Source: a virus
Taxonomy: Duplodnaviria > Heunggongvirae > Uroviricota > Caudoviricetes
Strand: one strand, 5' to 3'
Length of the DNA: 10,516 bases
Virus record (IMG/VR): IMGVR_UViG_3300018080_000111
The notes below the pieces were generated by a model. That model ran no database searches. It had not been told where the DNA came from and saw only the letters and a program-made list of their open reading frames with translations. This document shows, piece after piece, positions 2 through 10,516 of the stretch (position 1 is its first letter; the number at the start of each line of letters is the position of its first letter). The position numbers were made by a program, and so were the translations under genes.

Positions 2-637
2 TGGATTCGAGCAGGACGTATCCAGAATTCTTCCGGGTATGTAACAGTTCCAGAACAAAGAGTGGGACCATTCTCGGTTCCATCCTCCCCAAATTCTCGA
101 ATTGATTTAGTATATGTGGATACAGATGGAACGGTTACTATTCAACAGGGAACGGCCGCGGTAAGTCCTACCGCCCCCAGTTATGGGAATAAGTTGGTAG
201 TGGCGGAGGTGACTTTAGTAAATGGGGATACCAGTATTCCATCAAGTAGGATTCAGGACGTCCGATCTTTTTTGAATGGGTTTACTCCAAACGTGACCAA
301 CATTGGGTGGAACTATTCTGGGGTAAATATACATACCGGAAATGTGACAACCACATGGACAGAGGTCGACGTGTCGGGAATTGCCGGATCTGGGCGGAGT
401 ATGTTATACATCTATGCAAGTGCCGGGGCAGGAACCAATCGAGGTTTGTATCTTAAACCTCAGGATGAATCCGACTCGAACTACAATTCTTCTTATTATC
501 CGGCAGGAACAAATAAAGTATGGGATCAAGGATTAGTTTTGGTTCATACTAATAATGGAAAAATAAAGATCAGGGCACACGCATATACTCGGTCCTGGAC
601 CATAAAACTTATTGGGTGGCAGAATTTTGTGGGTTAA
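2..637 (+). CDS. 5'-truncated putative virion structural protein (phage tail fibre / minor tail protein-like)
   Basis: The frame is open from base 2 (WIRAGRIQNSSGYVTVPEQRVGPF...), so the GTG at 62 is probably internal. The segment RIDLVYV...GTAAVSPTAPS...VAEVTLVNGDTSIPSSRIQDVRSF matches the R-x-D...GT...P..P...A.V.....T.I....I.D.R pattern I recall from phage minor tail/fibre proteins. A beta-rich C-terminal domain follows (WTEVDVSG...TIKLIGW). About 20% Ser+Thr. The CDS is confident; the product call is pattern recognition only. Confidence 0.55.
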   Translation, partial: WIRAGRIQNSSGYVTVPEQRVGPFSVPSSPNSRIDLVYVDTDGTVTIQQGTAAVSPTAPSYGNKLVVAEVTLVNGDTSIPSSRIQDVRSFLNGFTPNVTNIGWNYSGVNIHTGNVTTTWTEVDVSGIAGSGRSMLYIYASAGAGTNRGLYLKPQDESDSNYNSSYYPAGTNKVWDQGLVLVHTNNGKIKIRAHAYTRSWTIKLIGWQNFVG

Positions 638-640
638 TCC

Positions 641-1375
641 GTGGGATACTTGCGAATGCGTAGAGTTGGGTCTCGGATAATTCCCAGGAAGGCAAGTCCA
701 TGTAAGGCAAAGCCCATTACGGACCTTCTGAATTGTTCCTCCTGGGAAGGAAAGAGATGTTTCATTCTTTGTGGCGGCCCCAGCTTAGAAAATTTTGATT
801 TCCTAACCATACAGGATGAAAAAACTATTGGAATAAATAAAGCGTTTATACAGTATAATACCAACATCCTGTATGGAATGGACCAAAGATTCTATGATAG
901 TATTTCTTTTTCAAATCGAGCCGATCAGGAAAATGCTGCGGTCCATAACTCCTGGCTCCGGTATTCCGGGATAAAGGTATTTCTTCGGACTTCATATAAA
1001 ACAAAATTTGATCCTAGTGTCTATTTTGTCAATGGATTAGAAAAGAAGCAGATAAGTTTGGATATTTCTCGGGGAATTTATGGTGGAGGAAACTCTGGAT
1101 TTGGTGGGATGATGCTCGCCATTTCTTTAGGCTGTAAAGAAATCTACATGCTGGGTTTAGATCTAAAAGTGGATGAGAAGAGGAAGAGGACTCATTTCCA
1201 CGAAGGATATAAGAACCAGAGAATAGAAAATGTTATAAAGGTTTTAAAGGATTTTAAAAAGGAATTTGAGTCTTTTGCTTCGTCGATTAAGGAATTAGGA
1301 ATTTCTGTGATTAATTTGAATCCAGACAGTTCCTTAGAATGTTTTCCAAAAAAGGATATCCGAGAGATCCTGTAG
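641..1375 (+). CDS. DUF115 / MptE-like / Maf-family putative glycosyltransferase
   Basis: Motifs CFILCGGPSL, TIGINKAF, YGMD, GGNSGFGGMMLAISLGCKEIYMLGLD, THFH, VINLNPDSSLECF. Start is GTG 641 or ATG 656. Confidence 0.8.
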   Translation: MGYLRMRRVGSRIIPRKASPCKAKPITDLLNCSSWEGKRCFILCGGPSLENFDFLTIQDEKTIGINKAFIQYNTNILYGMDQRFYDSISFSNRADQENAAVHNSWLRYSGIKVFLRTSYKTKFDPSVYFVNGLEKKQISLDISRGIYGGGNSGFGGMMLAISLGCKEIYMLGLDLKVDEKRKRTHFHEGYKNQRIENVIKVLKDFKKEFESFASSIKELGISVINLNPDSSLECFPKKDIREIL

Positions 1376-1395
1376 ATTCTTTCTGGAGAAGAAGA

Positions 1396-2190
1396 ATGAA
1401 TGGGAGAAGTGTTTTTGTTGTGGGAGGCGGACCGTCTCTTTCCGGGTTCGATTTCCAATCTCTTCACGGGAAGAATACCATCGCAGTCAATTCTTCGATC
1501 TTCTTCGTCCCCAATCCCGATTATTTCATCACGATGGATTTTACCTGGTTTGGTAAAAATGGAATCCAGTATGATTCATCAACAGAAGGAAAACAAAAGA
1601 TTTATAGATCAACAAAGGCCAAGAAGTTTTTTGTTGTGGCATATGATAAGGGACGCTTTGTGCATACACCTAATGGTGTTTTAGACACAAGGTTCGATTT
1701 AAATTATGACCTAAGAGTGGTAGATGAGGTCATATATTCATCTTCCTATGGTGGGGTAGGTAGCTCTCTTCAAGATTTTCATTGTGGAAGTGATAGCGGA
1801 TATAGTGGGATTCAATTGGCTGTAGCCTTAGGATACTCAAAGATTTACCTCCTGGGTATGGATTTTGATATAACCTCATCAACTAATAGAACTTCTGCTC
1901 CAACTATAATTCCACCCTCTGAAGTAACCCTTTTAAGGTCCTCCAGATCCAAAAAGATTCAGGTATCGAAAATTTCTGTCCGGAAGAGTTCCCATTTCTT
2001 CAAAAAGATGAGTTCTTCCGAATTGAAAAATTTCAAGAAAAAATTAGATGAGTATCTGACACCATATCCCAGTTTGTTCAAGGAGATTTCCGAAAAGACC
2101 TCCAGCCAGATTTTTAGTTGTTCTCCAAATAGTAGATTAAATCAATATATAGATTATGTTCCTTTGGGGAAGGCCATAAAGAATGATTGA
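1396..2190 (+). CDS. DUF115 / MptE-like / Maf-family putative glycosyltransferase (second paralogue)
   Basis: Motifs VFVVGGGPSL, TIAVNSS, ITMD, SDSGYSGIQLAVALGYSKIYLLGMD, IFSCSPNSRLN. ATG 1396 is preferred to the track's 1339 because GGAG lies at 1385-1388 and it avoids overlapping the upstream gene. Confidence 0.8.
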   Translation: MNGRSVFVVGGGPSLSGFDFQSLHGKNTIAVNSSIFFVPNPDYFITMDFTWFGKNGIQYDSSTEGKQKIYRSTKAKKFFVVAYDKGRFVHTPNGVLDTRFDLNYDLRVVDEVIYSSSYGGVGSSLQDFHCGSDSGYSGIQLAVALGYSKIYLLGMDFDITSSTNRTSAPTIIPPSEVTLLRSSRSKKIQVSKISVRKSSHFFKKMSSSELKNFKKKLDEYLTPYPSLFKEISEKTSSQIFSCSPNSRLNQYIDYVPLGKAIKND

Positions 2191-2971
2191 AACAAGTATA
2201 GTGATGACATATTACAATCGGACCAGGCAACTGAGAAACTCCCTCAAATCCATCCGGAGACAAAAAAAGGACCTTCAGAATACTGAGATTATAATTGTAG
2301 ATGACGCCAGTGATGAAGAAAAAAGAGCCCGATTGATTACGAAGGATTTTAAGGAACTTAACATCCAAATTGTAGAGGTTAAGAAGGAAGAGAAGTATTG
2401 GATAAATCCGTGTGTTCCTTATAATATGGGGTTTAGGCGGGCCAAAGGAAAGATTATTGTGATTCAGAATCCCGAATGTGTTCATTTTGGAAGGATTCTT
2501 GGATATGCTAAGGAGAACATTGGTGAAGGAAAGTATTTAAGCTTTCCCTGTTATTATGTGACGAAAGAACAATTTCAAAGATTTTGTAAATGGAAAGATC
2601 AACCGGATGATCTTTTTCTAAAGAAGGTTTCCAGAATAATTGATCCATTAGATAATCGACAATGGTATAATCATTCTTCTCTTCGTCCAACTGGCTATCA
2701 TTTTACTTCAGTGATATTGAAAAAGGATTTGGACAGAATTGGTGGGGGCTTCAACGAAGATTTTGCCACGGGCTATTGTTTTGATGACGATGAGTTCTTA
2801 TTCAGATTAGATCAAGGAGGCATGGATCGTCAAATTACACCTCATCAAATGGGTTTTGTAATACATCAGTGGCATCCCAAAAGCTCCATCTACGTTGGGA
2901 GGTGTCCGGAATGGTACCGAAATAGGGCCCTTCTGGAAAAGATAACAGGAAAGGAGTATAAAGAAATATGA
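2183..2971 (+). CDS. Glycosyltransferase family 2 (GT-A) with GT7C-like C-terminus
   Basis: SIVMTYYNR, IIIVDDAS, YNMGFRRAKG, GGFNEDF...FDDDEFLFRL, VIHQWH. The DxD position reads QNPE. 8-nt overlap with the upstream stop. Confidence 0.85.
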   Translation: MIETSIVMTYYNRTRQLRNSLKSIRRQKKDLQNTEIIIVDDASDEEKRARLITKDFKELNIQIVEVKKEEKYWINPCVPYNMGFRRAKGKIIVIQNPECVHFGRILGYAKENIGEGKYLSFPCYYVTKEQFQRFCKWKDQPDDLFLKKVSRIIDPLDNRQWYNHSSLRPTGYHFTSVILKKDLDRIGGGFNEDFATGYCFDDDEFLFRLDQGGMDRQITPHQMGFVIHQWHPKSSIYVGRCPEWYRNRALLEKITGKEYKEI

Positions 2972-4314
2972 TAACTGTATTTACTTCTTGTCACAACCAA
3001 GAAAAGTATCTTGCTAAGGCCATTCATAGCGTTCTGACTCAAACAGAAAAGGATTTTGAATACAGGATATATGACGATGGCTCTACCGACGGAACTTGGG
3101 ATATAATTCAAACATATGCAAAGAAGGATAAAAGGATTATAGCAAAGAAATTGGAGAAGACAGACAACGTCGGTGTAGTGGCTAAGATGTGTATGGAGGA
3201 GATGAAAGGTAAAGTCTGGACCTGGTGCCCTAGTGACGATATTTGGCTTCCCACTCTTCTTGAAACCAAAAAGAAATTCTCGGAAAACCATCCAAATTGT
3301 ATTCTCTATTCTGATTGGATCGTCATTGACCAAAACGGGAAGGAGTTGATGGAGAAACATCCTCGACTTTCCCCAAAAGAATTTAGTGAAGAAATCTGGA
3401 CTGGTTGCCCAATTGGATTTACAGGAATCTGGATTCCAAAAACCGTAATTGATAGGGTTGGCCCTTTCCCCACCCATTTGAAGTATAGTGAAGATTTTTA
3501 TTGGATGCTTAAGGCTAACGTCCACAAGATTCCCTTCGTTGGGGTTAGGAAGACCCTATATAAGAAGAGGAAGCATACTAATACTCTTACCCATAAAAAT
3601 TTACAATCAATTCTAGATCAGATTCCTGTCCTCGTTTCCGACATAAGGACGTATCAATCAACTTTACAGGAATCCGTTGAGGATAGTTTTGGGTTGACGG
3701 ATTGGTGGCGATTTCATCATTCTCATGAAGATACCCAATATCTAACTGGCTCAGATCCAGAATATGTTTGGAACTGTTTGAATATTAAAGATAAGATAAA
3801 GAAGTCTCGGTCTATTCTGGACATAGGGGTAGGATCTGGAAGTGAAGTAAAGGCACTCTCTAGGTTGGGTAAGGAGGTTTCCTGCTTAGATACTTGTCCT
3901 GAAGCGATCTCTAAAGTTTCTGATTTCATTGAATTCGGATACATATTTGGAGAATGCAAACTTCCGGAAAATTGTTTCGATTTGGCTATATCTCATCTGG
4001 TAGCCCAACATATGTCGGATACTAATTTAAAGAGGCAACTAAGAGAGGTTGTTCAGAGCCTATCCTCGGATGGTGTTTTGGCAATACAAATCGCAAATTC
4101 TATCCAGAATCAGCAGGGGGAAGTCGATTGGAAAAAGAACCAGAGCCTTCTTAATCAAAAGAAGGGTGGGGTTCTTAGAACGATAGAACAATTTGAGGAA
4201 CTAATTAAGGAGTTCGGTGAGATCGTTTGGGTATCCGATCCTAAATATTTGGGAGAGAGTGGGAATATTATTTTTCACTACCTTCACATCAGGAAGAAGC
4301 AAAATGCGGCCTAG
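2968..4314 (+). CDS. GT2 glycosyltransferase fused to C-terminal class I SAM-dependent methyltransferase
   Basis: N-terminus: VFTSCHNQEKYLAKAIHSVLTQT, IYDDGSTDGT, CPSDD, SEDFYW. C-terminus: ILDIGVGSG (SAM motif I), CLD, FDLAISHLVAQHM, LSSDGVLAIQ. ATGA overlap with the upstream gene. Confidence 0.85.
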   Translation: MITVFTSCHNQEKYLAKAIHSVLTQTEKDFEYRIYDDGSTDGTWDIIQTYAKKDKRIIAKKLEKTDNVGVVAKMCMEEMKGKVWTWCPSDDIWLPTLLETKKKFSENHPNCILYSDWIVIDQNGKELMEKHPRLSPKEFSEEIWTGCPIGFTGIWIPKTVIDRVGPFPTHLKYSEDFYWMLKANVHKIPFVGVRKTLYKKRKHTNTLTHKNLQSILDQIPVLVSDIRTYQSTLQESVEDSFGLTDWWRFHHSHEDTQYLTGSDPEYVWNCLNIKDKIKKSRSILDIGVGSGSEVKALSRLGKEVSCLDTCPEAISKVSDFIEFGYIFGECKLPENCFDLAISHLVAQHMSDTNLKRQLREVVQSLSSDGVLAIQIANSIQNQQGEVDWKKNQSLLNQKKGGVLRTIEQFEELIKEFGEIVWVSDPKYLGESGNIIFHYLHIRKKQNAA

Positions 4315-4840
4315 TACCAAATTCATCCAAGATACTTTTGGTAAACTCCCATTGGTTGGGGCAGAGATTGGGGTCTTAGCTGGAACGAATGCTAAGAGTC
4401 TGTTAGAAAATTTGAATATAAAATGGCTCATACTTGTCGATCTTTGGGATTCATATATTCAAGAAGGAAAAGAGATTAAGGAAACTACCCAGTATTATGA
4501 TAAGGTAACTGAAACTTTTGGTCATCTTTCTAAGGTTTGCATACTTAAAGAGCGTTCGGTTGCTGCCTCCAAAAGGATTGATGAACACTCCTTGGATTTT
4601 GTTTATATAGATGCATGCCACGATTACCTATCCGTTAAAGAAGATATTGATTGTTGGTTTCCAAAGGTGAAATCCGGTGGTGTCATTTCAGGACATGATT
4701 ATGGGACAAAGAGATGGCCTGGGGTAACAAAGGCAGTAGATGAATTTGTTAAATCTAAATTACTTTTCTTGAATACGGGAAAAATAGTTCGAAGAAGATC
4801 CCCCAAAGCGGTATCCGATTGGTTTATTGTTAAGGAGTAA
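4304..4840 (+). CDS. Class I SAM-dependent methyltransferase (Methyltransf_24-like)
   Basis: VGAEIGVLAG, VDLW, LDFVYIDACHDYLSVKEDIDCWFPKVKSGGVISGHDY. ATG 4304 (11-nt overlap, AGGA at 4291-4294) is preferred to the track's 4217. Confidence 0.88.
   Translation: MRPSTKFIQDTFGKLPLVGAEIGVLAGTNAKSLLENLNIKWLILVDLWDSYIQEGKEIKETTQYYDKVTETFGHLSKVCILKERSVAASKRIDEHSLDFVYIDACHDYLSVKEDIDCWFPKVKSGGVISGHDYGTKRWPGVTKAVDEFVKSKLLFLNTGKIVRRRSPKAVSDWFIVKE
4832..4837 (+). promoter_or_regulatory. Shine-Dalgarno site (AAGGAG) for the 4844 gene
   Basis: AAGGAG 6 nt upstream of the ATG. Similar purine-rich SD motifs precede most starts (1385, 2951, 6003, 6703, 7466, 9041). Confidence 0.7.
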
Positions 4841-4843
4841 AAG

Positions 4844-6004
4844 ATGAAGAAATTGATTATTTGCTATGGTCCGGAAAGAAGTGGGAAAACCTCTTTTTCG
4901 AAAACAAAAACCAATTATACTCGCATTAGATTCGACGACTACTGGAGGCAACGGGACTATTCCCCAGCAACAAAATCTCACGGATTTGATTATGTTAAAC
5001 TGCAATCAGATTTGATTTCTACCTTTTCGAAATCCGAAAAAGTTATTTTAGATGGTTGGATGAGATGGGACGAACTTCACTCGGTTCTTAAGGAAGTCCA
5101 AAAAGTAACCTCGGCAGAGATCTGCATTTATTTGATTGTAACGAATGTGGTCGCTATGGCCGATCGAAGAATTCAGGAAATTGAGAAAAAGAAACTTGTG
5201 GTTACCCCGAGACAAAATTATGAAATGTATAAGGTAGCCTTAAAATATGTCCAAAACTTCCCTTACCCCTCTTTTGTCCTGAATAATAATAATCTGGACT
5301 ATTCACGAATATCTTCTACGATTACCCCAGAAGACTTTGAAAAATTATGTTATCCCCAAATTAATTTTGAAAAGGCGGATAAATTCATTTCTGGTTTGGG
5401 TCAATTATATCATGGAATAGAAGTAGGAACCCGGAAGTATGGAAACTTTTCTCATTGTGAAGAAGTCTGGAAACATATTTCCAGTAAGGTAAATTTTGTG
5501 GGTAAGTCTGTTTTGGATTTGGGATGCTACTATGGGTTCTTTACCTTTCGAGCAGAAGAAAATATGGCAAGAAAATCTGTAGGGTATGATATAGGTGGAT
5601 TGGTAAATAGCTGTAATCGGATTGCACGATACAAAAATTCTAAATCCAAATTTGAGAATAAAGATCTAGATACTTTGTCAATAAAAGAGAAGTGGGACAC
5701 CATCTTGGTTATGAATGTTCTTCACCATCTTAATGCTCCTCTTCAGGTATTGAATGAGGTGTTTAAGTCTGCTAATAAATCTGTTGTTGTTGGAATAGAT
5801 ATACCGGAATCTCCAGATCTTAGATCCAGAAGAGTGGTAGAGGTTGGCGGGTTTCTAAAAAGAGCACAGAAGGGGAGAGGGGTCCCATTGTGGATATCTG
5901 TTCCAGTTCTTGAGGAGTTTGCGAAAGAGTATGGGTTTAAGCGGGTAGCTCATTTTAATAATTCTAGAAAAGCAAATAGAAAGCTTTTTATCTATTCCAA
6001 ATAA
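4844..6004 (+). CDS. P-loop kinase-like domain fused to class I SAM-dependent methyltransferase
   Basis: N-terminus: LIICYGPERSGKTS (Walker A), RFDDYW, KVILDGW. C-terminus: GKSVLDLGCYYGFF, VGYD, WDTILVMNVLHHL. AAGGAG lies 6 nt before the ATG. Confidence 0.78.
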   Translation: MKKLIICYGPERSGKTSFSKTKTNYTRIRFDDYWRQRDYSPATKSHGFDYVKLQSDLISTFSKSEKVILDGWMRWDELHSVLKEVQKVTSAEICIYLIVTNVVAMADRRIQEIEKKKLVVTPRQNYEMYKVALKYVQNFPYPSFVLNNNNLDYSRISSTITPEDFEKLCYPQINFEKADKFISGLGQLYHGIEVGTRKYGNFSHCEEVWKHISSKVNFVGKSVLDLGCYYGFFTFRAEENMARKSVGYDIGGLVNSCNRIARYKNSKSKFENKDLDTLSIKEKWDTILVMNVLHHLNAPLQVLNEVFKSANKSVVVGIDIPESPDLRSRRVVEVGGFLKRAQKGRGVPLWISVPVLEEFAKEYGFKRVAHFNNSRKANRKLFIYSK

Positions 6005-6014
6005 GGATATAAAA

Positions 6015-6704
6015 GTGAATTGCGAGAATGCCGACAGTTGTTTAGTTTTAAGTATTCCTCGATCAGGAACTCATGTTGTAATGCAGATACTAAATTCTTT
6101 AGGAATGAAAGAGTATCCGGCATTGGCTAAGCAGGATGACTTCTGGACAAAATGGGATACCCATATACAAACTATTCCAGATAAAGGATACTTCTGTTTT
6201 GGAAACCACGCTTATCCGGGCAAAGCTCGCCGATTGGTTGAGGCGAATCGGAAAGGGGTGTTCATCTCCAGAGATCCAAGGGACTGGGCAGTGTCTTATG
6301 GATACCACTTTAGGTTGACAAGTGGATTCAAACATATTTATGAGCAGTTTGGAATCAATAGACTTTTTGAGGAGTCCATTAAGAGGTTTCCAGGACAGTT
6401 AAAAAGACTGAAGTGGAGAGATTATCCTAACGTCTATTCGACAACCTTTGAGAGACTATTCCAGAATTCATTTGAAGAATTTACCAATATCTGCAACTTC
6501 CTGGGGATCAAAATAACTAAGAAGGAAATTAGAAGAAAGATAAAAGAACTAAACTCGTCTTCTCCAAAATACAAGAAAAATTTTAGGAGGGGGGTTGTCG
6601 GTGATTGGCGGAATTATTTGCTTCCTGAGCATATGGAACTATGTAAAAAACTTCTAGGACAGCATTTAATTGACGAAGGATACGAGAAAGATTTGGATTG
6701 GTGA
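6015..6704 (+). CDS. PAPS-dependent sulfotransferase domain protein
   Basis: 5'-PSB loop LSIPRSGTHVV, 3'-PB ISRDPRDWAVSY, TTFERL, C-terminal FRRGVVGDWRNYL. GTG start with AAGGA at 6003-6007. Confidence 0.88.
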   Translation: MNCENADSCLVLSIPRSGTHVVMQILNSLGMKEYPALAKQDDFWTKWDTHIQTIPDKGYFCFGNHAYPGKARRLVEANRKGVFISRDPRDWAVSYGYHFRLTSGFKHIYEQFGINRLFEESIKRFPGQLKRLKWRDYPNVYSTTFERLFQNSFEEFTNICNFLGIKITKKEIRRKIKELNSSSPKYKKNFRRGVVGDWRNYLLPEHMELCKKLLGQHLIDEGYEKDLDW

Positions 6705-6713
6705 GGCGGTAAG

Positions 6714-7484
6714 ATGCAGATTTTGATTACTGGAATAGGTAGGACGGGAACTACTGGGCTGTTTTCTAAGGTAAAGAATTCATTACCTGAGAATAACCAA
6801 TTTCTCCATGAGCCAAAAGTTGTGAATTCCTTAGGTAAAAATTGTCTGGTGAAGTTGAATATCTTCCGAGTTATGGAGAACCCCATACTCCTTACAATTC
6901 CAAAGAAGATCCTTCTTATTCGGGATCAGAGGGATAGAATAATCAGTTCCCTTCTATTTGGACTTTTTCAGACTTGGGAAGGAAAAGAAAAAAGATTATT
7001 TAAGGTGTTAGATCTGTTAAAGCAAAAGGAAAGTTCTCCAGAGTCTCTTTCTGTATTGAAACTTCATGAGCATCTGCATCCGAATTGGGATTTAAGGAAT
7101 CAGGCAAAGAAATATTGTAAAGGACTTATAAAATTTAGTAGGGAACAGAAAGTTCTTGTATATTACTATGAAGAGTTTGTGAAACAGAATTTTAAGCCAT
7201 TGGAGGATTATTTAGGTCTTCCTCTTTCAGGATCCTCTGATCTAGGAAAAAGGAAATATGTCCTTCGAACCGGTTCATCTGGAGATTGGGGAAATTGGTT
7301 CTGTAAGGAGGATATTGACTTCTTTCGTCCTTTGCTTCAAAAGTACATGGAAATTTTTGGATATGAGGATAATTGGAATCTAAAATCTCCCCAAAGAATT
7401 CCACCGGAGGTCGCTTCGGATTACGTCCTTAAAATAGTAAATGATTTAAGATTGAGAAATGGTTTGGAGCCGGTAGATGTCTAA
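6714..7484 (+). CDS. Sulfotransferase family protein (second, divergent)
   Basis: ITGIGRTGTT, FLHEP, LIRDQRDRIISS, YYEEF, LRTGSSGDWGNWF. GAGG at 6703-6706. Confidence 0.78.
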   Translation: MQILITGIGRTGTTGLFSKVKNSLPENNQFLHEPKVVNSLGKNCLVKLNIFRVMENPILLTIPKKILLIRDQRDRIISSLLFGLFQTWEGKEKRLFKVLDLLKQKESSPESLSVLKLHEHLHPNWDLRNQAKKYCKGLIKFSREQKVLVYYYEEFVKQNFKPLEDYLGLPLSGSSDLGKRKYVLRTGSSGDWGNWFCKEDIDFFRPLLQKYMEIFGYEDNWNLKSPQRIPPEVASDYVLKIVNDLRLRNGLEPVDV

Positions 7485-8178
7485 AAGTAAGACTCTAGTA
7501 ATGGGAAGTTGCAGACTTACTGAGCCATTTAAGGATGATCCTAACTTCATTCTCTATCCTGGAGGGCATGCTCACTGTACCAGCGCCTTCCTTCAAGCTC
7601 TCGACGTTATGGCAGGAAAGGTGGTTGTACCCAAGAAAATAGAGGAATTTGCTTTTCGGGGTTGGGGTTCTAACAATCCGGATAAGGAAGTGGACTTATC
7701 TAAAGTGTCGAATGTCGTAATGGAGCTTTGTTCATTTAAATGCGTGAAGTATGGCGACCTAATTTTAAGCCATGTATGTGCAACATCAAATGGTCGAAAG
7801 GGGCTTCCAAAGGCAAAAACGGTAAAAGTCCATATTGAAGCCCCAGATGAAATCCGATCTAATCTATACAAACTAAAAAAGAGGTTAAAAGGAAAAACTC
7901 TAATATTTGTTCTCAACAACAATATAACTGGTGTAATGCTAAGGTACAAGTTGGGCTATATCGTTTCGGATTGGTGCATAAAAAATAAGGTGACTTTTTT
8001 CGATCCAACGTCATTAATAGCGACCTATGGGATACCCTTATGTTTTCCCACAAGTGATTCGCATCCAAAGAAATATCAATTTAATTCTACCACGTATGAT
8101 CCGTATCATTACACGGAGTTTATGAAGAGGATTATTCATGAGCACATTCAAACTCTCATTGGACCGAGTGAAGAATAA
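7477..8178 (+). CDS. Hypothetical protein, SGNH-hydrolase-like (candidate glycan O-acetyltransferase/esterase)
   Basis: N-terminal LVMGSCR resembles block I of the GSCFA/WcbI-type families and C-terminal DPYH is a DxxH. GGAG at 7466-7469; 8-nt overlap. The CDS is confident; the function is tentative. Confidence 0.5.
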   Translation: MSKSKTLVMGSCRLTEPFKDDPNFILYPGGHAHCTSAFLQALDVMAGKVVVPKKIEEFAFRGWGSNNPDKEVDLSKVSNVVMELCSFKCVKYGDLILSHVCATSNGRKGLPKAKTVKVHIEAPDEIRSNLYKLKKRLKGKTLIFVLNNNITGVMLRYKLGYIVSDWCIKNKVTFFDPTSLIATYGIPLCFPTSDSHPKKYQFNSTTYDPYHYTEFMKRIIHEHIQTLIGPSEE

Positions 8179-9049
8179 ATCACAAAAGATACCGAAAGTT
8201 ATGAACTTCTTCTGGTCCGGGGAAACCCTTTCTTGGATGAGGTATATGACTCTTTACTCCTTCCGGAAATTGAATCCAGATTGGGAAATTGTTTTGCATG
8301 TCTTTCCATATTCCAGACAGAAAGAGAAACCCTGGCCGGATAAGAATTGTCAGGATTTCTTTAACTTTCCCTCTTCTGACTATCTAAGTAAGGTACCCGA
8401 ATTGGGTGTGCGGATCTCTCAGATTCCCCTAAATAAAAAATATTCTAAGTTGGATCCGGTGAGGTTAAGTGATGTCTTTCGTTGGTATCTTTTATATACG
8501 AATGGTGGATTTTACTCAGACATGGATATTCTATATGTAAAACCCATGGAGAGTTTTTATAATAGAATATCTAAATATGCAACTGTCTTGGCCTACACTA
8601 CAAAACCGACTCATTACTTTTCGATTGGTTTTATTGGGTCTACTCAAGGGAATCCATTCTTTAGAGATGTATATAAGATTGCGACTAATCGACTAAACAG
8701 AAAAGGATGCTATCAGACTGCAGGATCCGTCGCAATCTATGAATTGATAGGGAAGGCAAAAAATTGGAATGAGATCGTCCCCCACACGAATCAATTAGAA
8801 TTATACTACCAGAAATATGGAACGGACATTTACTGGGATTTTCAGAGAATAGTCTATCCCTATTCATATAGGCAGATACCTGAAATATTTTTTAATCCCA
8901 AATCTACTCTACCGGAAGAGAGTATTGGGCTTCACTGGTTTGCTGGTGCTGAGATGACTCAGGAGTTTAATCGCAACCTATCAAAAAACAATTATTTCGA
9001 ATACAATAATTTATTCTGTAATCTGGTTAAGAGAGTTCTTGGAGAATAG
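8168..9049 (+). CDS. GT32-like / DxD sugar-binding (Gly_transf_sug) glycosyltransferase
   Basis: IPKVMNFFW, TLYSFRKLNPDW, LSDVFRWYLLYTNGGFYSDMD, LHWFAG. The start is uncertain: GTG 8168 (11-nt overlap), ATG 8138 or ATG 8201. Confidence 0.82.
   Translation: MKNKSQKIPKVMNFFWSGETLSWMRYMTLYSFRKLNPDWEIVLHVFPYSRQKEKPWPDKNCQDFFNFPSSDYLSKVPELGVRISQIPLNKKYSKLDPVRLSDVFRWYLLYTNGGFYSDMDILYVKPMESFYNRISKYATVLAYTTKPTHYFSIGFIGSTQGNPFFRDVYKIATNRLNRKGCYQTAGSVAIYELIGKAKNWNEIVPHTNQLELYYQKYGTDIYWDFQRIVYPYSYRQIPEIFFNPKSTLPEESIGLHWFAGAEMTQEFNRNLSKNNYFEYNNLFCNLVKRVLGE
8231..8286 (+). repeat. 56-bp perfect direct repeat, copy 1 (inside first GT32 gene)
   Basis: TCTTGGATGAGGTATATGACTCTTTACTCCTTCCGGAAATTGAATCCAGATTGGGA, identical to 9097-9152; the flanking bases differ. 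Confidence 0.95.
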
Positions 9050-9051
9050 CT

Positions 9052-9951
9052 ATGATACCGAAGGTTATGAAATTCTTTTGGGGAAATGAAAAATTATCTT
9101 GGATGAGGTATATGACTCTTTACTCCTTCCGGAAATTGAATCCAGATTGGGAGATGGAATTACATTTATGTCCTCCTAGCACAATAAAGTATAAAACCTG
9201 GTTGGATGGGGTACAACAGGATTTCTTCAATTTCTCAGGGAAGGATTTTACAGGTAAACTTAACTCTTTGGATATTGAACTTAAAGAGTGGTCTCTTTTC
9301 CACAAGAATGGGAAGAGTATGCAAAATTGGATGGGTCCTTCCCATAAAAGTAACTTCTTTAAGTGGGGGGAGATGGCCACAAATGGTGGATTTTATTCTG
9401 ATTTAGACATCCTATATACAAAACCCTTGGAAGAATACTATGAAAAGGTAAAAGAGATGGATACCATCTGCTGTTATCATCATGATTACTTTTCCATTGG
9501 GTTTTTAGGGTCTTCGGGAAATAATCCATTCTTTCAGGATATCTACGATTTCTGTTTCCAGAGATTTAATATTAAAGAGTATCAATCGGCTGGAGTCCAA
9601 ACTGTATATACTTTTCTTAGGAAAGAAACAGAGATTCCTAATCCTGTTCCCAATTCAAAGATTAACTTTTGGAAGATTATCGAAGAAAAGTATCCAGAAC
9701 TGATTTTCTACAATAACCCAATGACTTTTGTTTACCCTTGGAAGTTTAATGAGATGGAGGAAGTCTTTTTAAAATTCCACGATGATCTACCTGAAGATTG
9801 TGTGGGAATACATTGGTATGCCGGCGATAAGATAGCACAAAAATATAACAATAAATTGACTCAAGGAAATTACAAAAAATTCAAAAATACATTTAGCTTC
9901 TATTTGGAGAAACTTTTACCTTCGAAAACTATTTTGGGGAAGAAGAAATGA
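9052..9951 (+). CDS. GT32-like / DxD glycosyltransferase (tandem paralogue)
   Basis: MIPKVMKFFW, TLYSFRKLNPDW, KSNFFKW...NGGFYSDLD, IHWYAG. GGAG at 9041-9044. Confidence 0.82.
   Translation: MIPKVMKFFWGNEKLSWMRYMTLYSFRKLNPDWEMELHLCPPSTIKYKTWLDGVQQDFFNFSGKDFTGKLNSLDIELKEWSLFHKNGKSMQNWMGPSHKSNFFKWGEMATNGGFYSDLDILYTKPLEEYYEKVKEMDTICCYHHDYFSIGFLGSSGNNPFFQDIYDFCFQRFNIKEYQSAGVQTVYTFLRKETEIPNPVPNSKINFWKIIEEKYPELIFYNNPMTFVYPWKFNEMEEVFLKFHDDLPEDCVGIHWYAGDKIAQKYNNKLTQGNYKKFKNTFSFYLEKLLPSKTILGKKK
9097..9152 (+). repeat. 56-bp perfect direct repeat, copy 2 (inside second GT32 gene)
   Basis: Identical to 8231-8286, at the same reading-frame position (SWMRYMTLYSFRKLNPDWE). Confidence 0.95.
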
Positions 9952-10516
9952 AATTAATGACCATTTTAGGAACTCGACCTGATTTAATTAAGATGTCAAG
10001 GGTTCTTCCCGCCTTGGATACCCATTTTGAGCATCTCTTTGTCCACACTGGACAGAATTATGACTATGAGCTTCATGGAATATTTTTCGATCAAATGGGA
10101 ATACGAGCCCCAGATATTTTTATGGGATGTGCGAAAGGAACCCCAGCGGATGCCGTTTCGGATATTATTTTGAAATCAGATCAGATATACGAAGAACACA
10201 AACCGGATGCTGTATTGTTTTATGGGGACACGAATTCTACGTTGGCCGTATATCCAGCAAAAAGAAGAAAAATACCCATTTTTCATATGGAAGCAGGAAA
10301 CCGAAGTTTCAATGCTTTAGTTCCTGAGGAAACAAACCGTAAAATTATTGATCATTTGTCCGATATAAATATGGTCAATTCGGAGAATGCCCGTAGATAT
10401 CTAATTAAGGAAGGTCTTCAGGAAGATCGAATAATAAAGACTGGATCTCCTATGTTTGAGGTTCTTGAGTATTATTCGGAAGACATTAAAAATTCTCCAG
10501 TTCTAAAAAATCTTAA
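9948..10516 (+). CDS. wecB: 3'-truncated non-hydrolysing UDP-N-acetylglucosamine 2-epimerase family protein, FnlC/WbjD/Cap5G-like
   Basis: Not in the ORF track. Manual translation from ATG 9948 (ATGA overlap): MKLMTILGTRPDLIKMSRV...VHTGQNYDYEL...GDTNSTL...IFHMEAGNRSF...PEETNRKIIDHLSD...KTGSPMFEV, open to the window end. HTGQNYDY and GDTNS resemble the Cap5G/FnlC subgroup; wecB is given as the family symbol only. Confidence 0.93.
   Translation, partial: MKLMTILGTRPDLIKMSRVLPALDTHFEHLFVHTGQNYDYELHGIFFDQMGIRAPDIFMGCAKGTPADAVSDIILKSDQIYEEHKPDAVLFYGDTNSTLAVYPAKRRKIPIFHMEAGNRSFNALVPEETNRKIIDHLSDINMVNSENARRYLIKEGLQEDRIIKTGSPMFEVLEYYSEDIKNSPVLKNL

Follow-up and report, generated by a model that had tools for sequence, protein, structure and literature searches.

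What does a tailed phage build, and on what does it place the product, when a long series of glycan enzymes is encoded directly behind a tail-fibre gene? The question is raised by a 10,516-nucleotide stretch of DNA (here the window, to which plain coordinates refer) from the IMG/VR virus record IMGVR_UViG_3300018080_000111, a member of the Caudoviricetes. The window corresponds to positions 19819-30334 on the plus strand of a 60,950-bp IMG/VR virus record designated G000, and it contains the start of an island of 16 enzymes that extends from window position 641 to approximately 14510 (G000 20459-34328). A sequence-only reading could follow the cluster no further than the window end, and its extent is corrected here, as the island runs on for approximately 4 kb. 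The island is regarded as a phage-encoded cytoplasmic glycan line that most likely glycosylates virion surface proteins, probably the fibres, a reading that is given about an even chance of being correct. The best candidate acceptors are the receptor-binding paralogues ORF0 and ORF1, which are encoded just before the island. Virion glycosylation is favoured because the island continues the tail operon, because two transferase genes (ORF2 and ORF3) are found next to the fibre genes in related phages, and because no export machinery was found.

The setting of the island is viral. G000 is estimated by CheckV to be 39% complete, and proteins identical to those of G000 are also present on a 144,814-bp contig, which indicates a phage of approximately 145 kb. 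In the 19 kb ahead of the window, PHROG searches recognized a complete contractile-tail/baseplate module composed of two tail-tube paralogues, a baseplate hub, gp25-like and gp6-like wedge proteins (E 6e-70 for the latter), a gp5-like hub, a PAAR-like protein, Ig/Hoc-like tail proteins and further virion proteins. The opposite boundary is formed by ORF18 (G000 34309-35643), a member of a phage 'DNA repair exonuclease' family (phrog_704, E 1e-72), and beyond its end the genes switch to the minus strand and are of the DNA-metabolism type. Cellular flanks or capsule-type genes had been named beforehand as what would refute the sequence-only reading; tail and baseplate genes were found upstream, and the phage records yielded no wzx or phosphoglycosyl-transferase family. 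The GC content of the island (0.378-0.385, versus 0.387-0.407 for the phage) is phage-like, and the island genes are long-resident genes of the phage; a recent horizontal gain of the island from the host was considered and is unsupported by composition.

The window was described earlier as a tail-like ORF followed after 3 nt by 12 co-oriented, tightly packed genes, and this was borne out: 12 plus-strand genes occupy positions 641-10516, the first of them 3 nt past ORF1, with spacings of -98 to +10 nt (mostly overlaps; largest gap 10 nt). From ORF0 to ORF18 no intergenic space exceeds 21 nt when a 75-aa DUF2061-like ORF is counted. In a sigma-70/terminator scan there was no enrichment of sigma-70 sites, and terminators were likewise not enriched (14 sites versus 13.2 expected). 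The absence of longer gaps, which leaves the island no space for promoters of its own, together with the lack of terminator enrichment indicates that the island is co-transcribed with the tail gene block or read from a start within it. Rfam, tRNA and repeat scans detected no RNA genes in the window, and the sole repeats are those of a tandem glycosyltransferase duplication (see below). On the minus strand of the island there are ORFs of 81-211 aa, which were set aside as antisense shadows because they overlap annotated plus-strand genes.

The proposed acceptors are two fibre paralogues. ORF1 (2..637, plus strand) is open at the 5′ end of the window, which contains its C-terminal 211 aa; the full gene (G000 19331-20455) encodes a receptor-binding or tail-fibre protein of 374 aa, and its paralogue ORF0 (G000 18190-19317) lies just upstream of the window. 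An alignment of 12 ORF0/1-type sequences, drawn from seven phages, is conserved over the first ~255 residues, with ~37 invariant positions, and the last ~110-150 residues are unalignable. Judged from this alignment, a conserved anchoring N-domain is combined with a variable binding C-domain, which is the usual layout of receptor-binding proteins. The AlphaFold2 (AF2) model of ORF1 is confident for residues 35-250 (predicted local distance difference test, pLDDT, 70-90 in the N-domain), and Foldseek returned 79 viral models at E<1e-3, many of them named 'Receptor Binding Protein' or Mtd_N; matches in the PDB include the tail fibre of cyanophage A-1(L) (8kec) and a phi812 baseplate chain (9euj). 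This Foldseek check supports the viral nature of ORF1, which folds like phage receptor-binding proteins. The structural matches cover one domain at template-modelling (TM) scores of 0.2-0.28, and such domain-level matches support a predicted tail fibre or receptor-binding protein while leaving the precise family unfixed. A predicted complex of the ORF1 N-domain (1-262) with ORF2 scored 0.00, which counts neither for nor against an interaction. Residues 281-374 of ORF0 weakly match the C-terminal domain of PA2794-like proteins (E 3.4e-4, below the cut-off); PA2794 is a Pseudomonas nonulosonic-acid hydrolase (pseudaminidase), and the match probably reflects a shared beta-sandwich only.

Immediately behind the fibres, ORF2 (641-1375, plus strand; 244 aa) encodes a predicted DUF115/MptE-like transferase of the sialyltransferase fold (GT42/GT73-like; phrog_4603, E 9e-25), and ORF3 (1339-2190, plus strand; 283 aa) a diverged paralogue of it (phrog_4603 at 3e-19 and phrog_2111 at 8e-10). 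Both proteins fall below the cut-offs of the Pfam MptE-like family (27.9 and 25.1 bits versus 34.6) and of CST-I (16-18 bits versus 25). The ORF2 family comprises at least 72 clusters, all of them metagenomic. The AF2 model of ORF2 (pLDDT 88.5) is matched best by WaaZ, the 'probable Kdo transferase' of the E. coli/Salmonella lipopolysaccharide (LPS) core (TM 0.59-0.64, E 2-4e-8; Kdo, 3-deoxy-D-manno-oct-2-ulosonic acid). It is also matched by Campylobacter Cst-II (TM 0.44-0.47), the Maf flagellin glycosyltransferase 5mu5 (TM 0.51), archaeal MptE and eukaryotic sialyltransferases. Against Cst-II the ORF2 family profile reaches E 1e-3, and the nucleotide-binding motifs GGGPSL and SG...LG..IYL.G.D are aligned. 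WaaZ (GT73, KdoIII), Cst-I/Cst-II (GT42) and Maf (DUF115) thus share with ORF2 a common fold (TM 0.44-0.64) and two nucleotide-binding motifs, and in size ORF2 resembles Cst-II and WaaZ; however, identity is only 12-17%, and the extra flagellin-binding domains of Maf are absent from ORF2. Those of the matched proteins that are known glycosyltransferases draw on CMP-activated ulosonic acids as donors, and no NeuB or CMP-sugar synthetase families were found in G000 or in four larger relatives. A host-made donor such as CMP-Kdo for ORF2 and ORF3 is the economical inference.

The arrangement of these genes is shared by relatives. A clade set of ~45 related loci was assembled by way of ORF1, ORF18 and an alignment of gp6-like proteins, with metagenomic contigs added; a search for related loci with ORF2 alone yielded none. 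The clade order consists of one or two ORF0/1-type fibres, ORF2 and ORF3, a series of variable enzymes, an ORF17-type glycosyltransferase and the exonuclease. In counts that span loci of shared ancestry and are uncorrected for kinship, ORF2/ORF3-type genes occur in 13 members of the clade set and each time lie downstream of a fibre of the ORF0/1 type; they adjoin the fibre in most of the 13 and lie within ~1.2 kb of it in L050 and L053. In relatives ORF3 is always paired with ORF2, and two loci that lack the ORF0/1 fibre type also lack ORF2/ORF3. The fixed ends and variable middle suggest a swappable surface-glycan cassette that co-evolves with the receptor-binding domains, and the parallel between the variable middle of the island and the variable C-termini of the fibres favours the virion as the site of the product. 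In one relative (L015:8366-9981) the ORF0-type fibre is split into two overlapping ORFs of 278 and 266 aa, which may represent a frameshift, an assembly error or a programmed shift. A separate arrangement was noted in L059/L060:15252-19649, where an ORF of 1465 aa directly behind an ORF0-type fibre resembles an alternative downstream module.

Pfam families were tallied for 120 island ORFs from ~19 relatives. GT2 is the most frequent of the families listed (18), and there are at least 12 methyltransferases, followed by Nucleotid_trans (6), GT32 (4), radical SAM (4), GT10 (3), GT1 (3) and LicD (2), plus epimerases. Transmembrane segments are absent from all 16 enzymes of the present island and from 116 of the 120 island ORFs of relatives, and no multi-pass membrane protein was recognized in either set. 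In five phage records there were no matches to Bac_transf or Glycos_transf_4 (controls matched in 10 and 12 of 14 genomes) and none to the Wzx (Polysacc_synt) family, which was searched with positive controls. The membrane exceptions are the 75-aa DUF2061-like ORF here and a TauE-family permease in one sibling phage, neither of which is a glycan exporter family. Established here are the genes that make up the island and their viral context, as well as the solubility of the enzymes and the pattern of synteny.

The enzymes within the window were earlier listed as six glycosyltransferase domains of three classes, three methyltransferases, two sulfotransferases, a kinase, an SGNH-like enzyme and an epimerase, and this inventory matches the results from Pfam, PHROG, the atlas and fold comparison. 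All are on the plus strand. ORF4 (2183-2971) is a GT2 enzyme (Glycos_transf_2, 7.9e-13) with homologues in the islands of five relatives (E 2e-16 or better). ORF5 (2968-4314) is a fusion of GT2 (Glycos_transf_2, 2e-20, residues 3-131) with a class I S-adenosylmethionine (SAM) methyltransferase (Methyltransf_11, 1e-10, residues 284-373). ORF6 (4217-4840) is of the O-methyltransferase type (Methyltransf_24, 3.6e-13); its listed GTG start overlaps ORF5 by 98 nt, and the true start probably lies downstream. ORF7 (4844-6004) combines an N-terminus of the P-loop kinase fold with a class I methyltransferase (Methyltransf_23 and other Pfam families, residues 216-368). The N-terminal residues 1-156 resemble AAA_33/zeta/KTI12-type kinases (TM ~0.6, feature score 0.85), and the modelled kinase is to be treated as a lead only.

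Two further classes of decorating enzymes follow. ORF8 (6015-6704) is a sulfotransferase dependent on 3′-phosphoadenosine 5′-phosphosulfate (PAPS), with a match to Sulfotransfer_1 at 3e-19 (69.8 bits versus a cut-off of 22) that was recovered at 1.2e-19 in a six-frame search of the record. ORF9 (6714-7484) is a putative second, diverged sulfotransferase (atlas feature score 0.98, TM 0.90 to a Sulfotransfer_1 cluster); sequence by itself yields weak matches only, and the assignment is drawn from structure and features. ORF10 (7477-8178) is predicted to be an SGNH-like enzyme of the TviD N-terminal/GSCFA type (atlas score 0.95), with TM 0.80 to the N-domain of TviD of the Vi polysaccharide and 0.68 to GSCFA; the copies searched gave no Pfam or PHROG matches, and the fold makes it a candidate glycan O-acyl transferase or esterase. 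In the atlas, the clusters of stand-alone TviD_N-like proteins and of related sulfotransferases are mostly viral, Nucleocytoviricota included.

The last genes of the window supply a glycosyltransferase pair and a sugar-nucleotide enzyme. ORF11 (8138-9049) is a GT32 (DXD) glycosyltransferase (Gly_transf_sug, 8e-9) and ORF12 (9052-9951) its tandem-duplicate paralogue (Gly_transf_sug, 8e-4), the two forming a direct repeat family with a spacing of 866 nt. A block of 56 nt is identical in both genes (8231-8286 and 9097-9152), which otherwise are ~77% identical, and this suggests a recent gene conversion between the paralogues. ORF13 (9948-10516 in the window, its first 189 aa; full gene G000 29766-30878, 370 aa) is a non-hydrolysing epimerase of the WecB type that acts on uridine diphosphate N-acetylglucosamine (UDP-GlcNAc 2-epimerase; Epimerase_2, 5e-85; NCBIfam wecB, 226.1 bits versus a cut-off of 210.15). 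A sialic, legionaminic or pseudaminic acid pathway, as a WecB-type epimerase beside DUF115 proteins might imply, was rejected, as ORF13 scores as WecB and not as NeuC (226 versus 79 bits) and neither NeuB nor a CMP-synthetase is present.

Past the window end are ORF15 (G000 31856-32830), a GalE-like short-chain dehydrogenase/reductase (SDR), ORF16 (G000 32842-33669), an RmlD-like reductase of the same superfamily, and ORF17 (G000 33666-34328), the Nucleotid_trans glycosyltransferase that closes the island. A reading of ORF13, ORF15 and ORF16 as a UDP-L-FucNAc pathway (FnlABC/CapEFG) was also rejected, ORF15 being GalE-like and without a Polysacc_synt_2 match.

The supply of the sulfate donor had been a concern for the window taken by itself, and this concern was removed by genes just outside it. 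ORF14 (G000 31120-31893; L003:11120-11893), approximately 0.8 kb past the window end, is a fusion of adenosine 5′-phosphosulfate (APS) kinase with an HxGH adenylyltransferase. Its N-terminus matches Pfam APS_kinase (68.1 bits versus a cut-off of 21.1, 1e-18) and does not reach the NCBIfam equivalog cut-offs, which fits a short version of the enzyme within a fusion; its C-terminus is nearest to archaeal nicotinamide mononucleotide adenylyltransferases (NMNATs). ORF14 probably supplies PAPS. No canonical Sat or CysDN was seen, the adenylyltransferase part is always linked to the kinase, and the C-terminal half may serve as a minimal sulfate adenylyltransferase in place of canonical ATP sulfurylase. 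More than 4000 uncharacterised proteins, most of them metagenomic, make up the family of this fusion. In a sibling phage (36.7-kb contig) whose island also carries two sulfotransferases, the two halves of ORF14 are separate adjacent genes preceded by a TauE-family anion permease.

The apparent 241-nt gap ahead of ORF14 is filled here by the DUF2061-like ORF (G000 30900-31127; L003:10900-11127), whose 75-aa product is hydrophobic with two helices and has a sub-threshold DUF2061 match; the same site in the sibling contig is occupied by the TauE-family permease and a DUF2490 protein. An anion-uptake function may thus, as this hints, form part of the sulfation cassette. Sulfotransferases are absent from the 25 commonest families among the 120 island ORFs of relatives, and ORF8, ORF9 and ORF10 have no homologues in the islands of the ~19 relatives. 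The relative G001 encodes a homologue of ORF14 (7e-75) together with a sulfotransferase-like ORF (E 8e-6, under the cut-off), and is the sole relative with such an ORF among the five records searched for Sulfotransfer_1. By these comparisons the sulfation block is a cassette of this phage and its sibling, possibly also of G001, and the architecture itself is clade-wide.

Some features beyond the island bear on the phage and its host. In the sibling, a 36,703-bp Logan contig, the ORF18-type exonuclease has 718 aa versus 444 aa here and a faint LAGLIDADG match, and may contain an intein or a homing-endonuclease insertion. A radical SAM gene (G000 35933-36910, minus strand; L003:15933-16910) converges on the island end and is found at the same position in the sibling contig. 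Further on, a protein with a two-partner-secretion (TPS) domain is encoded (G000 38797-39870, minus strand; L003:18797-19870), whose five closest bacterial relatives all belong to the Planctomycetota (46-55% identity; Sedimentisphaerales, Pirellulales and Phycisphaerae). These relatives mark the origin of that gene and provide a lead for the host, which is probably a planctomycete. The TPS-domain protein may also be a host-surface effector.

From these parts a route to the glycan can be proposed. In this scheme the island would form the last part of the transcription unit of the tail and baseplate genes. First, ORF13, ORF15 and ORF16 would convert host UDP-GlcNAc or UDP-hexose into rarer sugar nucleotides; second, ORF2 and ORF3 would add an ulosonic acid, with CMP-Kdo or another CMP-sugar of the host as the donor. 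The chain would then be extended by five GT-A enzymes (two GT2, two GT32 and one Nucleotid_trans). Finally it would be decorated by three methyltransferases, the P-loop kinase, the TviD-like acyl enzyme and the two sulfotransferases, with ORF14 supplying PAPS. The expected product is a short, strongly anionic, methylated glycan.

Several points weigh against the virion as the destination of this glycan. The acceptor above all is inferred, as are the donor sugars, the order of steps and the timing; the earlier proposal of an elaborate virus-encoded assembly and decoration line behind a tail gene stands, and its extension to a virion coat is a conditional step. A motif scan for the T4-type late promoter (TATAAATA / TATAAAT) found no sites upstream of island genes, so that a late timing is suggested by gene order alone. 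Three phages keep the fibre type and lack ORF2/ORF3 in the sequence seen, which amounts to 7 kb downstream for L059/L060 and 2-2.4 kb for L054 and L064. WaaZ and Cst-II, the best structural relatives of ORF2, act on lipid-anchored LPS or lipooligosaccharide (LOS), and the protein glycosyltransferase Maf ranks under them by E-value. The island also sits at a module boundary, between tail genes and DNA metabolism, where auxiliary genes often accumulate. Lastly, soluble glycosyltransferases can use host undecaprenyl-linked intermediates, so that a product in the host envelope is compatible with an island that has no export genes.

A number of these points are shared by the explanation that survives best after virion glycosylation, namely remodelling of the host envelope, which is regarded as possible if somewhat unlikely. 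Here host lipid-linked intermediates, flippase and ligase would be used to place a sulfated, methylated Kdo-type glycan on LPS or capsule, so as to mask the receptor from superinfecting phages or to stop progeny from sticking to debris. The nearest structural relatives of ORF2, the KdoIII transferase WaaZ (TM 0.64, E 4e-8) and the LOS sialyltransferase Cst-II, speak for such a role, as do the resemblance of ORF10 to the N-domain of the capsule enzyme TviD, the WecB type of ORF13 and the position of the island at a boundary typical for auxiliary genes. The TauE-family permease in the island of the sibling implies that the phage acts on host physiology, and islands rich in glycosyltransferases in pelagimyophages and cyanomyophages have been read as modifying O-chains or cell walls (PMC7029224, PMC12801897). 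Those published readings, however, are inferences and not experiments. Moreover, no initiating phosphoglycosyl-transferase, Wzx or multi-pass protein was seen in the islands of ~19 relatives and the five phage records, and gapless packing behind tail genes suggests co-expression that is probably late, a timing that suits exclusion poorly. ORF2 and ORF3, furthermore, track one fibre type and not a host glycan locus. If the glycan were nevertheless destined for the host envelope, the island would be among the most elaborate phage programmes known for the rewriting of a host surface.

An improbable explanation is that the acceptor is something else, either a sulfated oligosaccharide or glycolipid that is free or secreted, or a non-virion protein of phage or host such as an adhesin, pilin or flagellin. 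Maf-type DUF115 enzymes do glycosylate flagellins (5mu5, TM 0.51 to ORF2), and host-like surface proteins such as the TPS-domain protein are encoded nearby. The fibres are the sole candidate acceptor that is syntenic with ORF2/ORF3 across the clade, however, and the island contains no export or secretion component.

A more specific version of fibre glycosylation is rated as highly improbable. In this version the glycan is a bait and not a shield, and mimics the sulfated algal polysaccharides that are bound and taken up by planctomycete hosts, so that the capture apparatus of the host draws the virion in. The bait would be a sulfated, methylated, ulosonic-acid glycan made through self-contained sulfate activation, by which are meant the permease (in the sibling), the minimal adenylyltransferase and the APS kinase. 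If true, the virion would be the first of a prokaryotic virus to bear sulfated glycoprotein, and its adsorption would follow a new principle.

Almost no weight is given to DNA hypermodification, in which the glycosyltransferases, kinase and sulfotransferases would decorate modified bases against restriction: phage clusters that place mono- to trisaccharides on 5-hydroxymethylcytosine (5hmC) exist, some near structural genes (bioRxiv 10.1101/2023.12.21.572611), the N-terminus of ORF7 very weakly matches a 5-hydroxymethyldeoxyuridine (5-hmdU) DNA kinase family (E 0.037) and the island adjoins a DNA exonuclease gene, but C5-cytosine methyltransferase (PF00145) and thymidylate-synthase/dCMP-hydroxymethylase (PF00303) are absent from all five records in searches with positive controls, the three methyltransferase domains are of small-molecule types and not DNA methylases, and known DNA glycans are far simpler than a line with seven glycosyltransferase domains, three domains of the O-methyltransferase type, two sulfotransferases and an acyl enzyme would need to be. 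The 5hmC-glycosylating clusters depend on two enzymes, a C5-cytosine methyltransferase and a dioxygenase of the TET type (bioRxiv 10.1101/2023.12.21.572611); the TET/JBP-type dioxygenase PF12851 (5mYOX) was found in none of the five records, and the control genomes were equally silent, which makes that search uninformative.

Virion glycosylation by enzymes of the virus itself can be compared with several known systems. The sequence-only reading had known of no comparable phage system, which was too strong, as glycosyltransferase islands beside fibres and phage sulfotransferases are in print; it holds in so far as none of those has been characterised. Freeman et al. 2023 (Cell Host Microbe; cited in PMC12619734 and PMC12801897) reportedly found that soluble glycosyltransferases of mycobacteriophages, in some clusters accompanied by methyltransferases, glycosylate capsid and tail-tube subunits. 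To our knowledge mycobacteriophages are the only case among tailed phages in which the mechanism proposed here has been shown by experiment. The likeness lies in glycosyltransferases encoded among structural genes, the present island starting 3 nt past ORF1 and behind the baseplate module. Mycobacteriophages use few enzymes in a Gram-positive-type host, whereas 16 enzymes are present here; they are not known to use sulfation, kinase, acyl or ulosonic-acid-type steps, and their acceptors are the C-termini of capsid and tail-tube proteins, whereas receptor-binding proteins are suspected here.

The Nucleocytoviricota also glycosylate their own particles: chlorovirus capsid glycans are made with a GT-GT-methyltransferase fusion enzyme, and Mimivirus carries fibril glycans. 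Shared traits include cytoplasmic, lipid-carrier-independent assembly of methylated, bacterial-like glycans on proteins of the particle and glycosyltransferase-methyltransferase fusions like ORF5; TviD_N-like and sulfotransferase-like clusters are common in the Nucleocytoviricota. However, the hosts of giant viruses are eukaryotic and their virion architecture is unrelated.

Nearer in gene content is the Xanthomonas jumbo phage XacN1, in which the tandem ORF375-ORF374 combines phrog_4603 and phrog_2111 as do ORF2 and ORF3. The XacN1 tandem heads one glycosyltransferase and four large genes, ending at the tail-sheath completion gene, and in XacN1 virions at least two glycoproteins, left unnamed, were revealed by Schiff staining (PMC5852040). 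The tandem and the glycoproteins provide circumstantial but independent support for a virion product. Set against this, identity is only 24-25%, XacN1 is an unrelated 385-kb jumbo phage, its glycoproteins have not been linked to the tandem genes, and the part of its genome that was examined showed no sulfation genes.

In T4-like pelagimyophages and cyanomyophages, a host recognition cluster (HRC) contains tail fibres and many glycosyltransferases, and has been read as modifying host O-chains (Zaragoza-Solas et al. 2020, PMC7029224). Like the HRC, the present island is large and non-syntenic, lies in the structural region of an aquatic myophage and combines fibres with glycosyltransferases and sugar-nucleotide enzymes, and in both systems relatives differ by gene cassettes, radical SAM genes included. 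The HRC lies between VrlC and the neck gene gp14, whereas the present island lies between receptor-binding genes and the phrog_704 exonuclease; no gp14 or VrlC is annotated in the island flanks, and no search was made by those names. The present clade is a different one, probably infecting planctomycetes, its fixed ends are the ORF2/ORF3 pair and the ORF17 glycosyltransferase, and sulfotransferases with a PAPS supply have not been described for HRCs. Cyanophages with 13 glycosyltransferases have been published (PMC12801897), and phage sulfotransferases have been noted with a role that 'remains unclear' (PMC10580990). Particular to this locus is the design of fixed ends and variable middle, anchored on a sialyl/Kdo-transferase-like pair directly behind receptor-binding genes; particular to it as well are the sulfation cassette with its own PAPS supply and the likely planctomycete host.

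The locus is a well-defined and directly testable case, and the ORF14 fusion family may represent a minimal PAPS synthase. If the product is indeed placed on the virion, phages of Gram-negative-type hosts would build complex, charged glycoprotein surfaces with their own enzymes, something so far shown for mycobacteriophages only (with simple glycans) and for giant viruses. This would change how phage host range, recognition by antibodies and grazers, and particle stability are interpreted, and it would provide a function for the many unexplained glycosyltransferase and sulfotransferase genes in the genomes of aquatic phages.

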